Virus record (IMG/VR): IMGVR_UViG_3300045988_138709
DNA: 40,733 nucleotides
From: a virus
Lineage: Duplodnaviria > Heunggongvirae > Uroviricota > Caudoviricetes
Direction: 5' to 3' (one strand)
In this document: in pieces, positions 115 to 6,450 of the stretch
How positions within the stretch are numbered: the stretch's first letter is position 1
How the letters are laid out: every line of letters starts with the position of its first letter
The notes under the pieces: generated by a model
The model's database searches: none
What the model was told of the DNA's origin: nothing
The model's input: only the letters and a program-made list of their open reading frames with translations
Program-made: the position numbers and the translations under genes

Positions 115-190
115 GCCGATATAGCTCAGTTGGTAGAGCAGCGCATTCGTAATGCGAAGGTCGTAGGTTCGACTCCTATTATCGGCACCA
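115..190 (+). tRNA. thrW: tRNA-Thr (anticodon CGU), 76 nt, ends in CCA
   Basis: Seen in sequence: GCCGATATAGCTCAG...anticodon loop TTCGTAA...GGTTCGACTCC T-arm...CACCA; cloverleaf folds by eye. thrW identity is from recall, not a search. Confidence 0.85.
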
Positions 191-4637: not shown

Positions 4638-5072
4638 ATGTCCGGTAATATCTATACGCTGTACAAATCCCACTGTGAAAATGTTGGAAAGTATCGGGGC
4701 ATTGAAATCAGTGGGGTAGTGTCATCAGTCGAAATAAGCAAAGTTGAATCAAGGGCAACATTACTTACTCTTTTGGACCTTGTCTTACATGAGCACCGGA
4801 AGAAATTCGGCACTCCCTATAATCAGTTGAATGGGAAAAAGGCTCTGGTTCACCTTATTCTGATGAAGCATCACTGGATGCCAAAACAGATTAATGAGAT
4901 GAAATTTGATGAACTTCTTCTTTCAATTCAGGATGAACTCACACTTGATAAAATAAGCGTAACCGCCCAGAAATTTTTAGATTATCGAGACTGGAGATCA
5001 CAAATTCATCACTTTGATGATTTTGACGAAAATGAATGGGATCCTAATTTGTCTGCACAATATCTAAAGTAA
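4638..5072 (+). CDS. Hypothetical protein encoded antisense to the early-left operon
   Basis: 144-aa ORF with ATG and AAAGGA RBS; AT-rich; no motif recognised. Confidence 0.5.
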   Translation: MSGNIYTLYKSHCENVGKYRGIEISGVVSSVEISKVESRATLLTLLDLVLHEHRKKFGTPYNQLNGKKALVHLILMKHHWMPKQINEMKFDELLLSIQDELTLDKISVTAQKFLDYRDWRSQIHHFDDFDENEWDPNLSAQYLK

Positions 5073-5250
5073 CATCCTGTGATAAAACCGTGATTTCCTG
5101 ATCCAGTTTTTTTAAGGAGTCTATTGTTTCCTGTCGATAAGACAGCACTTCACGAAGCTGGTTTATAGCTGCCAGCTTCTTTGTCATCCACTCATAAATT
5201 TCCTCATCTGTGTAGCCAGGCGCGACGATTTTGGGTTCTGTTTTGTGCAT
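5044..5250 (-). CDS. Small hypothetical protein (first gene of leftward early transcript?)
   Basis: ORF 5044..5265, start placed at internal ATG (MHKTEPK...). 3' end overlaps the convergent 4638..5072 gene. Weak. Confidence 0.35.
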   Translation of the reverse strand: MHKTEPKIVAPGYTDEEIYEWMTKKLAAINQLREVLSYRQETIDSLKKLDQEITVLSQDVTLDIVQTN

Positions 5251-5310
5251 TTCACATCTCCTCAAGTTATCAGTTACTTGTTGATGGGGACCAGATTGTT
5301 AAAGAGCTAA

Positions 5311-5332
5311 GCGTCCTGTAGGGCGCTTTTTT
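5311..5332 (+). terminator. Putative intrinsic terminator (hairpin plus T6)
   Basis: GCGTCC-TGTA-GGGCGC followed by TTTTTT, read by eye. Confidence 0.35.
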
Positions 5333-5409
5333 GTTGCTAACGAATCATCCTGGACTTCATATGCCCCAGGCGGCTACTTCGTGGGCGTCCTGCCTGTTCG
5401 TTGTTTCTC

Positions 5410-5446
5410 TTGGGTACATTACGTATCTCAAAGGTACATTGTCAAG
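5410..5446 (-). promoter_or_regulatory. Putative OL/pL: two GGTACATT repeats and a TTGACA -35 on the minus strand
   Basis: GGTACATT at about 5413-5420 and 5433-5440 (20-bp spacing); minus-strand TTGACA at 5445..5440; -10 is weak. Position just outside the repressor terminator matches a lambdoid pL. Confidence 0.4.
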
Positions 5447-5471
5447 TATAAAAAAACCTGCCGAAGCAGGT
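5447..5471 (-). terminator. Intrinsic terminator downstream of the repressor gene
   Basis: Minus-strand ACCTGC-TTCG-GCAGGT followed by a T7 run, immediately after the repressor stop. Confidence 0.55.
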
Positions 5472-5484
5472 TCATAAACATTGA

Positions 5485-6159
5485 TTAGGCTTTGATTTTG
5501 TATCTTCTTGGTTTTCCTGAGAAAATCACTGTACCAATTATAGAGCAATTACCGTTGATCTTAATGTAAGGCTCAGGCCAGTTTGGGTTTAACGCTTTGA
5601 GATAACGCTGTGTCCCATCTTCTATTAACCTTTTGAAGGTGGTTTCACCTGTATCGTGCATCAATGCAATAACGTCGTCACCGTGGCAGGCAGGTACTTC
5701 AGGATCGACAAAAATCATGTCTCCCGGGCGGTACTCATCAATCATTGAATCACCTATCACCCGCAAGATATAAGTCATTTCCCCACAGGGTACAGGGCAG
5801 GGATACGTTTCTGCTGTGCTCAAATCAACCTCAGAATATCCAACTTCTTTCCATGCTCCGGCCTGTACCCATGATATGACAGGGACTAATGTGATTTGTT
5901 TATTAGTGATTGAAACATCAGGTTTTTTTGTGATGTTCGTTGTCTGGTGTTCTTGATCGAGCCATCCGACAGGTAGGTCGAAACATTTTTCGATGTGTCG
6001 TGCCATGCTGTCACCGATATTTTTAGTAGCACCATCTCCCATAAACCTGCTGGTCTGGGTTGGCTCGCGATCAATCATAGTGGCAAAGGAAGAATTCCCG
6101 CCAACACCATCTCTCAGTTTTCTGGCGTTAGACCGCCGGATGTCATGGATTGTTTTCAT
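5485..6159 (-). CDS. cI: CI-like phage repressor (N-terminal HTH plus C-terminal S24 LexA-like peptidase domain)
   Basis: 224 aa; C-terminal autocleavage-domain motifs (...VISWVQAGAW..., GDSM, ...TFKRL...); divergent from the Cro-like gene; no obvious SD ahead of its ATG. Confidence 0.85.
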   Translation of the reverse strand: MKTIHDIRRSNARKLRDGVGGNSSFATMIDREPTQTSRFMGDGATKNIGDSMARHIEKCFDLPVGWLDQEHQTTNITKKPDVSITNKQITLVPVISWVQAGAWKEVGYSEVDLSTAETYPCPVPCGEMTYILRVIGDSMIDEYRPGDMIFVDPEVPACHGDDVIALMHDTGETTFKRLIEDGTQRYLKALNPNWPEPYIKINGNCSIIGTVIFSGKPRRYKIKA

Positions 6160-6169
6160 AACGAAATTA

Positions 6170-6249
6170 AAACCCTTGTACCGTTAAGGTACAAGTATCT
6201 TGAAGGTTCATTTCAATCATGTAATATGTACACCGGAGGTACATATTGT
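6170..6249. promoter_or_regulatory. OR region: two palindromic operators plus pR (TTGAAG-16-TAATAT)
   Basis: Palindromes CTTGTACC-N5-GGTACAAG (about 6175-6195) and ATATGTAC-N7-GTACATAT (about 6224-6246, overlapping the -10 at 6222-6227); -35 TTGAAG at about 6200-6205. Confidence 0.55.
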
Positions 6250-6450
6250 ATGAAAGCGTATTGGGACTCTTTAACCAAAGAACAGCAGGGCGAGTTGGCC
6301 GGAAAAGTTGGCTCAACACCTGGCTACTTACGGCTGGTTTTCAATGGCTATAAAAAAGCCAGTTTTGTGCTGGCTAAAAAACTTGAGCAATGCACGTCAG
6401 GTGCAATTACGAAATCTGACTTAAGACCGGATATCTATCCGAAAGATTAG
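6250..6450 (+). CDS. cro: Cro-like HTH regulator
   Basis: 66-aa protein from internal ATG (MKAYWDSLTKEQQGELAGKVGSTPGYLRLVFNG...) of ORF 5995..6450; sits directly behind pR/operator, divergent from the repressor. Confidence 0.7.
   Translation: MKAYWDSLTKEQQGELAGKVGSTPGYLRLVFNGYKKASFVLAKKLEQCTSGAITKSDLRPDIYPKD

Follow-up and report, generated by a model that had tools for sequence, protein, structure and literature searches.

Putative operators and promoters of a probable e14/SfV-type immunity switch in a lambdoid prophage

Positions 5410-6450 of the window, by which we mean the whole 40,733-bp stretch of DNA analyzed here, contain two divergent genes, cI on the minus strand and cro on the plus strand, which lie 90 bp apart and have three operator-like sites between them. 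These and the adjoining features are listed in Table 1. The deduced CI protein contains a Peptidase_S24 domain (residues 93-212, E 1.5e-26) with the motifs QAG at residues 99-101, GDSM at 136-139, and FKRL at 175-178. Ala100-Gly101, Ser138, and Lys176 are intact in CI and were conserved in 17 of 17 aligned proteins, and the C-terminal half is similar to lambda CI (E 1.9e-9), UmuD, and LexA. A profile search of the PDB with the N-terminal part of CI returned the Rep structure 5D50 (E 1.7e-8, residues 1-73), and the recognition region REPTQxSR was conserved in all 17 homologues. The Cro protein showed weak similarity to the solved phage Cro proteins 8CO2 and 8C7K. As judged from sequence, the combination of a divergent CI-type repressor with a small Cro supports the view that the region is an immunity switch.

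Table 1. Features of the cI-cro region and of the adjoining pL leader; positions are those of the window
Feature	Position	Strand	Description
Hairpin and boxA in pL leader	5296-5328	minus	hairpin 5309-5328, then rrn-type boxA GCTCTTTAACAA 5296-5307
Conserved structured RNA	5335-5406	minus	5' end of predicted pL transcript; adjoins the switch, not part of it
OL2 (putative)	5402-5418		strong half AATGTACC and weak half GAAAC; 11.2 bits; family D1
pL -10 (putative)	5418-5423	minus	CGTAAT in window, CATAAT in every relative; 16-bp spacer
OL1 (putative)	5422-5438		ATGTACC-TTTGA-GATACG (minus strand), in pL spacer; 19.3 bits
pL -35 (putative)	5440-5445	minus	TTGACA, perfect consensus; in 17/17 homologues directly after cI terminator
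cI intrinsic terminator	5454-5473	minus	terminator scan; also in SfV record
cI repressor gene	5485-6159	minus	ORF, 224 aa; N-terminal DNA-binding domain and C-terminal S24 autocleavage domain
pRM transcription start	6159	minus	A of cI ATG; published start on identical e14 sequence
pRM -10	6166-6171	minus	TTTAAT; TnTAAT in the family; T instead of A at -11
OR site 1 (putative)	6177-6193		perfect palindrome TGTACC-GTTAA-GGTACA; 23.1 bits
pRM -35 (putative)	6189-6194	minus	TTGTAC, 17-bp spacer, inside OR site 1
OR site 2 (putative)	6194-6210		degenerate, AGTATC-TTGAA-GGTTCA; 12.4 bits
pR -35 (putative)	6200-6205	plus	TTGAAG; TTG kept in 17/18 aligned sequences
pR -10 (putative)	6222-6227	plus	TAATAT, 16-bp spacer
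OR site 3 (putative)	6227-6243		perfect palindrome TGTACA-CCGGA-GGTACA; 24.8 bits
cro Shine-Dalgarno	6235-6239	plus	GGAGG, invariant
cro	6250-6450	plus	ORF, 66 aa; small YdaS/HTH-like protein

Over 115 of 115 bp, the cI-cro region is identical to the ymfK-ymfT region of e14, a cryptic prophage of E. coli K-12. CI matches e14 YmfK/CohE in all 224 residues and Cro matches YmfT/CroE in 65 of 66. The region shows 98-99% DNA identity to the phages PhiR29_1, SfIV, and SfV (98-98.8% for SfV and SfIV) and 95.6% to Stx2c phages. In the GenBank record of SfV, the equivalent of window positions 6176-6244 is already labelled 'putative operator region', and cI, cro, and the cI terminator are annotated as well. 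The cI and cro genes of SfIV were reported to be identical to their SfV counterparts (PMC3851460). Besides SfV and SfIV, the same immunity group comprises Stx2c-converting phages, cdtI, Ayreon, and 2H10. As in the window, a YmfL-like gene follows cro in e14; e14 is a 15-kb remnant at icd, whereas the window holds a 40-kb prophage adjoining tRNA-Thr. With a probability of about 85%, we therefore take the region to be the immunity switch, deciding between lysis and lysogeny, of a lambdoid prophage of the e14/SfV type that is integrated beside tRNA-Thr. To judge from these sequence identities, it is the same switch as that of e14 and mostly known already, and the window, e14, and SfV/SfIV, which share repressor and operator region, belong to one homoimmune group.

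The initial annotation had described two palindromes between the divergent genes, CTTGTACC-N5-GGTACAAG and ATATGTAC-N7-GTACATAT. Both are present, at 6175-6195 and 6224-6246, respectively, and the arms of the second extend to 9 bp; a third site in this interval, at 6194-6210, had been overlooked. The two palindromes share a single register, TGTAC-N7-GTACA, which has exactly two perfect matches in the entire window (6177-6193 and 6227-6243, both between cI and cro) compared to 0.04 expected; two perfect matches were obtained in none of 100 shuffles. When two mismatches were allowed, the pattern was not enriched window-wide (15 found versus 11.1 expected), which would fit an origin of the palindromes as chance features of an AT-rich intergenic region. 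The exact-match count, the conservation at fixed positions in 17 diverged loci, and the recovery of the sites by a matrix built independently of the window refute such an origin, to which we give practically no credence. This weight matrix was trained on the homologous loci alone, with the window left out. Its five best scores in the window belong without exception to OR or OL, with hits starting at 6225 (24.8 bits), 6175 (23.1 bits), 5420 (19.3 bits), 6192 (12.4 bits), and 5400 (11.2 bits); the sixth-best score was 8.9, and the mean shuffle maximum was 8.5 (standard deviation, 3.0). Site 2 and OL2 score just about 1 standard deviation over the mean shuffle maximum, and their assignment as putative operators rests mainly on conservation and position.

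The comparison set consisted of 17 diverged homologous loci whose CI proteins are 73-88% identical. In all of these loci the half-sites of the operators are invariant and the central 5 bp are variable, and the sites keep constant positions relative to the ATG, at -87 and -37. Invariant halves, variable centers, and fixed positions support the interpretation that the palindromes behave as operators, and CI is predicted to bind 17-bp sites of the form TGTACC-N5-GGTACA. Neither the recognition region nor the half-sites differ among the 17 homologues, i.e., there is no co-variation in specificity between repressor and operator. Binding of CI or Cro to these sites was not documented in the literature covered, which did not extend to the SfV (2002) and e14 (2004) genome papers. 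The center of site 1 is at 6185, corresponding to -26 of pRM. Site 2 is centered at 6202 (-43 of pRM), overlaps the pR -35 hexamer, and groups with the OL sites in the direct-repeat family D1. Its GGTTCAT is invariant and its left half is GTACC in most homologues; this conservation could partly reflect the -35 hexamer and spacer of pR. Site 3, centered at 6235 (-76 of pRM), spans the end of the pR -10 hexamer, the predicted start, and the cro Shine-Dalgarno sequence, and its position is kept in all homologues. From center to center, neighboring OR sites are 17 and 33 bp apart, and the distance between the two OL sites is 20 bp. Sites 1 and 3 of the window are both perfect palindromes, unlike in SfV, where one half of site 3 reads GTAT and the central spacer of site 1 is a different one.

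Palindromes of this kind might also act as RNA or DNA hairpins, and palindrome 1 in particular might serve as an intrinsic terminator of leftward transcripts entering cI, as a terminator scan flagged 6195-6175 (minus strand) with an 8-bp stem followed by GGTTTTAATT, and the RNA fold reached -11.5 kcal/mol (z = -3.3). The U-tract is short, however, and the arms are invariant in sequence without compensatory change while the loop varies, which is the pattern of protein recognition. The motif is furthermore found again at pR and in the pL spacer, places at which termination would make no sense, and the predicted cro mRNA starts only after the left arm of palindrome 2. We rejected palindrome 1 as a terminator on the basis of its invariant arms, the motif at pL and pR, and the short U-tract, and regard a hairpin function of the palindromes as very improbable compared to their function as operators.

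The second palindrome had been said to overlap a near-consensus pR, TTGAAG-16-TAATAT. Hexamers and spacer are indeed present, but 'near-consensus' was an overstatement, as only 8 of 12 positions match. The aligned -10 hexamers are TAATAT, CATAAT, TAGAAT, and TATCCT, with A2 and T6 kept in 18 of 18 sequences, and a pR promoter at this position, inferred from sequence, is predicted to start at about 6232-6235. A consensus promoter scan of the window listed none of pR, pRM, and pL, and the promoters were therefore assigned from conservation and, in the case of pRM, additionally from a published start. The sequence upstream of cro pairs with the anti-Shine-Dalgarno sequence at -10.6 to -11.6 kcal/mol in the 18 sequences.

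The situation is different upstream of cI, where the pairing ranges from -5.1 to +0.9 kcal/mol in 18 sequences, equivalent to no Shine-Dalgarno sequence. The proposal that the repressor lacks such a sequence and appears to be leaderless held up on three counts: the missing pairing in 18 of 18 sequences, a conserved TAAT, and a published start on the ATG. In differential RNA-seq of MG1655, the class I start RVS_(I)-1202156 coincides with the start of ymfK and has a leader length of 0 (PMC4681348, Table S3). These data support a leaderless cI mRNA starting on the A of the ATG; a leaderless ymfK/cI mRNA is a prior published result and not new here. The A lies 15 nt from the first palindrome, in agreement with the distance of ~15 bp from an operator given in the initial annotation. 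The -10 hexamer of pRM is located 6 nt from the cI ATG in all but one of the 17 homologues, in which the distance is 7 nt. The AAT of this hexamer is invariant, and the bases between hexamer and ATG are hypervariable. The -35 hexamer was placed from the mapped start site. Its TTGTAC is invariant in the alignment (A1), and no homologue has an insertion or deletion between it and the -10 hexamer. Without an A at -11 of its -10 element, pRM is weak by sequence.

On the other side of cI, two GGTACATT repeats had been taken as a putative OL/pL. They are present at 5413-5420 and 5433-5440, and the assignment is supported, with the modification that the repeats are the strong halves of two full-length sites, the partner halves of both being degenerate in the window. 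OL1 is a perfect palindrome in most homologues. OL2 lies 20 bp from OL1 over the predicted pL start, which we place at about 5410-5411, and its weak half is G.AAC in 11 of 17 homologues. TTGACA, the palindrome in the spacer, and CATAAT are kept in all homologues directly after the cI terminator, which at the level of sequence supports the assignment as pL/OL. The OL of e14 differs from that of the window by a single base, which changes CATAAT to CGTAAT in the window. An exact match to the 61-mer of the window occurred in none of 644 complete E. coli genomes carrying this OL. Because its -10 hexamer is CGTAAT instead of CATAAT, the left promoter may be impaired in the window.

The arrangement shares with lambda the divergent cI and cro genes, the three OR sites, a second cluster at pL beyond cI, the leaderless cI, the self-cleaving C-terminal S24 domain, and a pRM-proximal site inside pRM. 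The N-terminal domain and the operator sequence are unrelated to those of lambda, in which the OR spacings are 23 and 24 bp compared to 17 and 33 bp here; the ~23-24-bp operator spacing of lambda was not found in the window. Relative to pRM, the OR centers are at -19, -42, and -66 in lambda and at -26, -43, and -76 here. The pRM-proximal site is the weakest in lambda but the best palindrome here, and lambda has three OL sites, whereas two were seen in the window. CII of the window is of the CP76 type, unlike that of lambda, and an N gene was not found in the window. Because of the deviating spacings, pairwise cooperativity in the manner of lambda is not to be assumed.

In a lysogen, CI bound to sites 2 and 3 and to both OL sites is predicted to keep pR and pL silent, and cI is transcribed from the sequence-weak pRM as a leaderless mRNA. 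Occupancy of site 1, between the -35 and -10 hexamers of pRM, is predicted to limit cI expression; from site 2, CI may stimulate pRM in the way that lambda CI acts from OR2. DNA damage would lead to RecA-stimulated self-cleavage of CI at Ala100-Gly101 and to derepression of pR and pL; YmfK has been listed among the SOS-sensitive repressors (PMC8249747). Cro would then be translated from an mRNA with a short leader and a strong ribosome-binding site; it would presumably occupy the same sites and shut off pRM. We infer the occupancy of the individual sites by these proteins, its order, the activation from site 2, and the starts of pR and pL.

The strongest palindrome within the core promoter of pRM fits plain autorepression better than a lambda-like activation. 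In a purely negative autoregulation, site 1 would be filled first and throttle pRM, and site 2 would just block pR without any activation. Site 1 indeed spans -34 to -18 of pRM, the same position in the spacer as OL1 in pL, and scores 23.1 bits compared to 12.4 bits for site 2. The message number of ymfK, a gene that is essential in K-12 (PMC10350078), is very low, at ~0.4 messages per cell cycle (PMC10350078). Other properties of the region argue against a purely negative circuit. The poor -10 hexamer of pRM (TTTAAT, with a base other than A at -11 in most homologues) is typical of activator-dependent promoters, and the center of site 2 at -43 is within 1 bp of that of lambda OR2 at -42. The imperfect GTTC half of site 2 is invariant in 18 of 18 sequences, suggesting a tuned affinity, and pRM is active in K-12 lysogens with CI present. 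Purely negative autoregulation has a substantial chance of being correct, if one somewhat short of even.

The N-terminal DNA-binding domain is homologous to that of Rep of SPC32H/epsilon15 (PDB 5D50), and the operator core xTACC-N5-GGTAx is shared as well, including an abutting pair at 17 bp. TTACC-N5-GGTAA sites flank the rep gene of SPC32H six times, compared to 0.03 expected; the Rep operators read TTACC/GGTAA and those of the window GTACC/GGTAC. Rep lacks an S24 domain, whereas the C-terminal half of CI is an S24 domain and not an oligomerization domain of the Rep type. Rep is inactivated by an antirepressor (PMC9638917); CI is predicted instead to cleave itself. By analogy, the abutting sites 1 and 2 might be bound jointly by a CI tetramer in which the domain pairs come from different dimers. 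This mode was already proposed for Rep, whose binding to palindromic sites reportedly involves a tetramer (PMC9638917) and whose N-terminal domain is homologous to that of CI at E 1.7e-8; SPC32H moreover has a third site at 30 bp next to its abutting 17-bp pair, resembling the 17 and 33 bp found here. Against a tetramer stand the lambda-type C-terminal S24 domain of CI, in place of the oligomerization domain of Rep, and the distance of 20 rather than 17 bp between the OL sites; a single-sequence AlphaFold prediction of CI reached a pLDDT of just 31 and yielded no structural model. We consider joint binding by a tetramer unlikely. More generally, this CI family may have inherited, along with its Rep-like DNA-binding domain, a way of reading the abutting 17-bp operator pair that differs from that of lambda.

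Operators with TGAAC/TGTAC half-sites are also found in HK022, but there the half-sites are 2 bp closer, with N5 between the xxAC and GTxx cores instead of the N7 found here, and no similarity was detectable between the N-terminal domains of HK022 CI and the CI of the window. A kinship of the operators was therefore dropped in favor of coincidence or convergence.

HK022 is of interest in another respect, as it also lacks N and has the RNA element putL at the very start of its pL transcript (PMC9378689). SfV-like phages are likewise without N (PMC3851460), and in the window the 5' end of the predicted pL transcript contains a conserved structured RNA, which begins ~6-9 nt past the predicted pL start and was hit by a covariance model with 93.5 bits. 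The RNA forms a three-way junction whose single-stranded core of 22 nt is invariant; in an alignment of 74 distinct sequences, pairing holds in 97.6% of cells, and compensatory change is seen in 10 of 15 pairs. It was previously unannotated, and a comparison with Rfam gave no family at the gathering thresholds or at E values up to 5. It recurs behind strong early promoters of many phages and was also found among the first few nucleotides of early-left transcripts in phages whose immunity regions are unrelated. The leader RNA of e14 is a different sequence variant from that of the window. The boxA GCTCTTTAACAA downstream of the RNA is the single exact copy in the window and occurs at a fixed distance in related contexts. 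The leader RNA shares with put of HK022 a location right at the 5' end of the early-left transcript in a phage lacking N. BLAST found no similarity between the leader RNA and the put elements of HK022 and HK639, and the covariance model (R1) had no hit at E values up to 10 in the HK022 immunity region and the whole HK639 genome, including the annotated putL; the identification of the leader RNA as HK022/HK639 put was rejected on these grounds. Tentatively, and with the odds rather against it, the RNA might act in cis and independently of N in antitermination or against pausing, as a new class of RNA that is analogous but not homologous to put.

The switch itself is an ordinary one: of 5,426 complete E. 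coli genomes, 644 contain an OL region of the e14/SfV type, and the same immunity type is carried by Stx2c-converting and cdtI toxin phages. The putative operator set (consensus ATGTACC-N5-GGTACAT; OR contains three sites and OL two) is now usable for annotation and for predicting superinfection immunity among e14/SfV-type prophages. Because the OR of e14 is identical to that of the window, E. coli K-12 can be used directly as a test system. The geometry of the switch, with the best site inside pRM, an invariably imperfect site at -43, and spacings of 17 and 33 bp, raises the question of how a lambda-like switch achieves cooperativity and autoregulation when its DNA-binding domain is of another kind. 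A more interesting lead than the switch is the leader RNA, which could explain the read-through of early terminators in lambdoid phages without N.

The region is the already known immunity region of the e14/SfV group and is not new, e14 being a cryptic prophage of Escherichia coli K-12. DNA identity is 99.3% with Escherichia phage PhiR29_1, 98.8% with Shigella phage SfIV, 98.0% with SfV, and ~95.6% with Stx2c-converting phages, cdtI, Ayreon, and 2H10. Direct comparison with K-12 revealed 115 of 115 identical base pairs in the cI-cro region of e14, whose two genes RefSeq names ymfK and ymfT; CI is identical to YmfK/CohE in all 224 residues and Cro to YmfT/CroE in 65 of 66. In the SfV GenBank record, annotations cover cI with a terminator behind it, cro, and, at the equivalent of window positions 6176-6244, a "putative operator region"; the OL segment was found in 644 of 5,426 complete E. 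coli genomes. As the window begins with a tRNA-Thr(CGU) gene, presumably the integration site, what it holds is a prophage of full length that belongs to the e14/SfV immunity group and sits next to this tRNA. The initial annotation had interpreted the region as an immunity switch, and every sequence element it listed was found where it had been placed. This observation is confirmed and the interpretation supported; the present analysis adds the full operator set, its geometry, and a link to the Rep family.

Features of the immunity region and of the SPC32H sequence used for comparison
Feature	Position	Strand	Basis or remark
tRNA-Thr (anticodon CGT/CGU)	115-190		left edge of window
boxA, perfect rrn-type	5296-5307	-	directly after hairpin
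Hairpin	5309-5328	-	between leader RNA and boxA
Structured leader RNA	5335-5406	-	covariation; 5' end of predicted pL transcript
OL2	5402-5418
OL1	5422-5438
cI terminator	5454-5473		terminator scan
cI ORF, 224 aa	5485-6159	-	C-terminal Peptidase_S24 domain, E 1.5e-26
pRM -10, TTTAAT	6166-6171	-	from +1 at 6159
OR site 1	6177-6193
pRM -35, TTGTAC, 17-bp spacer	6189-6194	-	inside site 1, from +1 at 6159
OR site 2	6194-6210
OR site 3	6227-6243
cro ORF, 66 aa	6250-6450	+	weak YdaS and HTH_3 matches
CII, CP76-type, 187 aa	ORF next after cro		protein domain match
TTACC-N5-GGTAA sites flanking rep	585-646 and 1356-1508 of L164 (Salmonella phage SPC32H)

The cI and cro ORFs are separated by 90 bp, and the two palindromes proposed as operators in this gap (OR) share one register, TGTAC-N7-GTACA. 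Exact copies of this motif occur only twice in 40.7 kb, as sites 1 and 3 (expected, 0.04). With two mismatches allowed, no overall enrichment was found in the whole window, and the signal therefore consists of the exact, clustered copies. For phylogenetic footprinting, 17 homologous loci with CI proteins 73-88% identical were taken from a scan with one genome per species, covering Pseudocitrobacter, Klebsiella, Atlantibacter, Leclercia, Phytobacter, Pantoea, Rahnella, Edwardsiella, and others; their alignment contained no indels across OR, and, measured from the cI ATG, the strong sites are always at -87 and -37. Site 1, TGTACC-N5-GGTACAAGT on the plus strand, has invariant half-sites, and its central five bases differ in nearly every locus. 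Site 3, ATGTAy-N7-GTACAT, holds the invariant Shine-Dalgarno sequence GGAGG of cro. A middle site missed by the initial annotation, site 2 (GTAyC-TTGnn-GGTTCAT), directly abuts site 1; most homologues have GTACC as its left half, and its right half carries GTTC, never GTAC, in 18 of 18 sequences. A weight matrix derived from 40 homologue sites, with the window left out, gave its five best window matches at 6225 (24.8 bits), 6175 (23.1), 5420 (19.3), 6192 (12.4), and 5400 (11.2), the sixth scoring 8.9 bits and the shuffle maximum averaging 8.5 (sd 3.0). The direct repeat D1, an 18-nt family found independently, joins site 2 to both OL sites. The invariant half-sites in the 17 loci and the recovery by this matrix support the two palindromes as putative operators. 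The predicted operators in OR number three, not two, and the two weak sites are supported by conservation and position more than by score.

The two GGTACATT repeats support the proposed OL and leftward early promoter pL; they are the strong halves of the two OL sites, 20 bp apart, whose degenerate partner halves had been overlooked. Directly past the cI terminator, every homologue has a perfect TTGACA, then a spacer containing an operator, then CATAAT. The spacer operator, ATGTACC-N5-GGTACAT, is a perfect palindrome in most homologues, and CATAAT overlaps the second OL site, which there combines one strong half with a weak G.AAC half. In the window, the -10 hexamer reads CGTAAT, with a C at plus-strand position 5422 that is a window-specific base at position -11; CATAAT is present in SfV, Ayreon, e14, strain T16R, and 17 of 17 homologues, and of the 644 complete E. 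coli genomes in which this OL was found, none has an exact match to the window's 61-mer. Since sigma-70 promoters depend on A at -11 more than on any other -10 base, this change may cripple pL in the window; partial substitution could come from TAATGT, which overlaps the hexamer and has an 18-bp spacer. The base also falls in the weak half of OL1, degrading it further, and it may be a sequencing error or else a pL-down mutation in a prophage that is decaying. An ORF of 144 aa (4638-5072) is encoded on the plus strand, opposite to that of the pL operon, and is followed by terminator-like plus-strand hairpins at 5154-5179 and 5309-5328. An E. coli genome carries a counterpart annotated as "ECs1072 family phage-associated protein," and the ORF resembles a moron that has inserted into the early-left region.

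Pfam detected no helix-turn-helix in CI residues 1-90, and single-sequence AlphaFold of CI gave a pLDDT of 31. A profile of 16 CI N-terminal domains matched the N-terminal domain of Rep, the repressor of Salmonella phage SPC32H (PDB 5D50; E 1.7e-8, residues 1-73). Around the SPC32H rep gene, six TTACC-N5-GGTAA sites were counted versus 0.03 expected; three of them lie upstream, at spacings of 30 and 17 bp, paralleling the 33 and 17 bp in the window OR. Both systems have an xTACC-N5-GGTAx core and an abutting pair of sites spaced 17 bp, whereas the core itself is TTACC-N5-GGTAA in SPC32H and GTACC-N5-GGTAC in the window. The homology to Rep together with the common core supports the operator assignment. 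By analogy, CI might possibly bind in a Rep-like tetrameric mode, although its C-terminal domain is lambda-like. The operators of HK022 (TGAAC/TGTAC-N5-GTTCA/GTAC; L028, ~330-400 and 1140-1200) have the same half-site core, but placed 2 bp closer together. The N-terminal domains of the HK022 and window CI proteins show no detectable similarity, and the operator likeness is probably convergence.

The cI start, described as apparently leaderless in the initial annotation, shows no Shine-Dalgarno pairing in 18 of 18 sequences (-5.1 to +0.9 kcal/mol upstream of the ATG); the values for cro are -10.6 to -11.6 kcal/mol. A TnTAAT motif, invariant in its TAAT, precedes the cI ATG by 6 nt in 16 of the 17 homologues and by 7 nt in the other; the six bases in between are hypervariable, and this position puts the +1 of the cI promoter pRM at the A of the ATG. 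The start had already been mapped: Romero et al. (2014) listed only five leaderless mRNAs in MG1655, one of which is ymfK, whose class I start site RVS_(I)-1202156 coincides with the start codon (leader length, 0; PMC4681348, Table S3). The window is identical to the K-12 sequence carrying this start, which corroborates both the leaderless start and the proposed pRM start point. Judged by its sequence, pRM would be weak, because position -11 is T, C, or G in most family members, and the ymfK message number of ~0.4 per cell cycle (PMC10350078) agrees with this. TTTAAT is an unusual -10 hexamer for an active promoter with an experimentally mapped start, which suggests dependence on an activator. 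Calling the rightward promoter pR near-consensus was an overstatement, as it has 8 of 12 consensus matches; positions 2 (A) and 6 (T) of its -10 hexamer do not vary (TAATAT, CATAAT, TAGAAT, TATCCT). Inside the cro start, about 30 nt downstream of the predicted pR start, lies a boxA-like ACTCTTTAACCA with 2 mismatches (6266-6277, plus strand), which is kept in homologues, yet coding, so that its likeness to boxA is probably due to chance.

Relative to the pRM +1, the centres of sites 1, 2, and 3 are at -26, -43, and -76, and those of lambda OR3, OR2, and OR1 at -19, -42, and -66 (coordinates annotated in J02459). Site 1 lies within the pRM spacer, just as OL1 lies within the pL spacer, site 2 overlays the pR -35 region, and site 3 overlays the pR -10 end, the predicted pR start (~6232-6235), and the cro ribosome-binding site. 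The best-supported reading is a lambda-like switch, for which we infer site occupancy by protein and its order: CI would shut pR and pL, would limit its own synthesis when bound to site 1, and at site 2 might stimulate the weak pRM. Purely negative autoregulation is a serious rival to such stimulation, because the best palindrome lies inside pRM and the operators are spaced differently from those of lambda (17 and 33 bp within OR and 20 bp within OL, versus 23 and 24 bp). In the lambda-like switch, SOS induction would proceed via CI self-cleavage at Ala100-Gly101; Ser138 and Lys176 are conserved in the homologue alignment. This is consistent with the listing of YmfK as an SOS-sensitive repressor (PMC8249747) and with ymfK being essential in K-12 (PMC10350078).

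Downstream of pL, the homologues have in common a block of 65-72 nt whose stems co-vary. BLAST detected this structured RNA in phages with unrelated immunity regions, in each case a short way past the repressor gene; among them are SfII, ST64B, ZF40, mEp237, SEN34, SPN3UB, YeP1, and an Aeromonas phage. A T5-like Providencia phage also has it, within its terminal repeat. RNAalifold predicted a three-way junction with the stems P1 (AACGAA/UUCGUU) and P3 (CCUGG/CCAGG), and the 22-nt core AGGCAGGACGCCCACGAAGUAGC is invariant and present in >120 IMG/VR contigs. A covariance model identified 93 copies in the fetched loci; among 74 distinct sequences, 97.6% of cells were paired versus ~19-41% with partners slid, and 10 of 15 pairs showed compensatory changes. 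In most of 40 contexts inspected (130 distinct), the RNA lies ~10-25 nt below a strong early promoter, and these promoters carry operator-like palindromes of varied types. The RNA has no match in Rfam 15 and is present, unannotated, in the K-12 prophage e14. An assignment to put, the antiterminator RNA of HK022 and HK639, was rejected, as there was no covariance-model match to either. The hairpin after the RNA reads as an intrinsic terminator on the plus strand, and no other exact copy of the boxA, GCTCTTTAACAA, occurs in the window. Allowing up to one mismatch, a boxA is found in 21 of the 130 contexts, in 17 of them at the same distance of 87 nt. Since SfV-like phages lack N (PMC3851460), a cis-acting role in antitermination is a reasonable hypothesis; as a candidate N-independent antiterminator, the leader RNA is the item most deserving follow-up.
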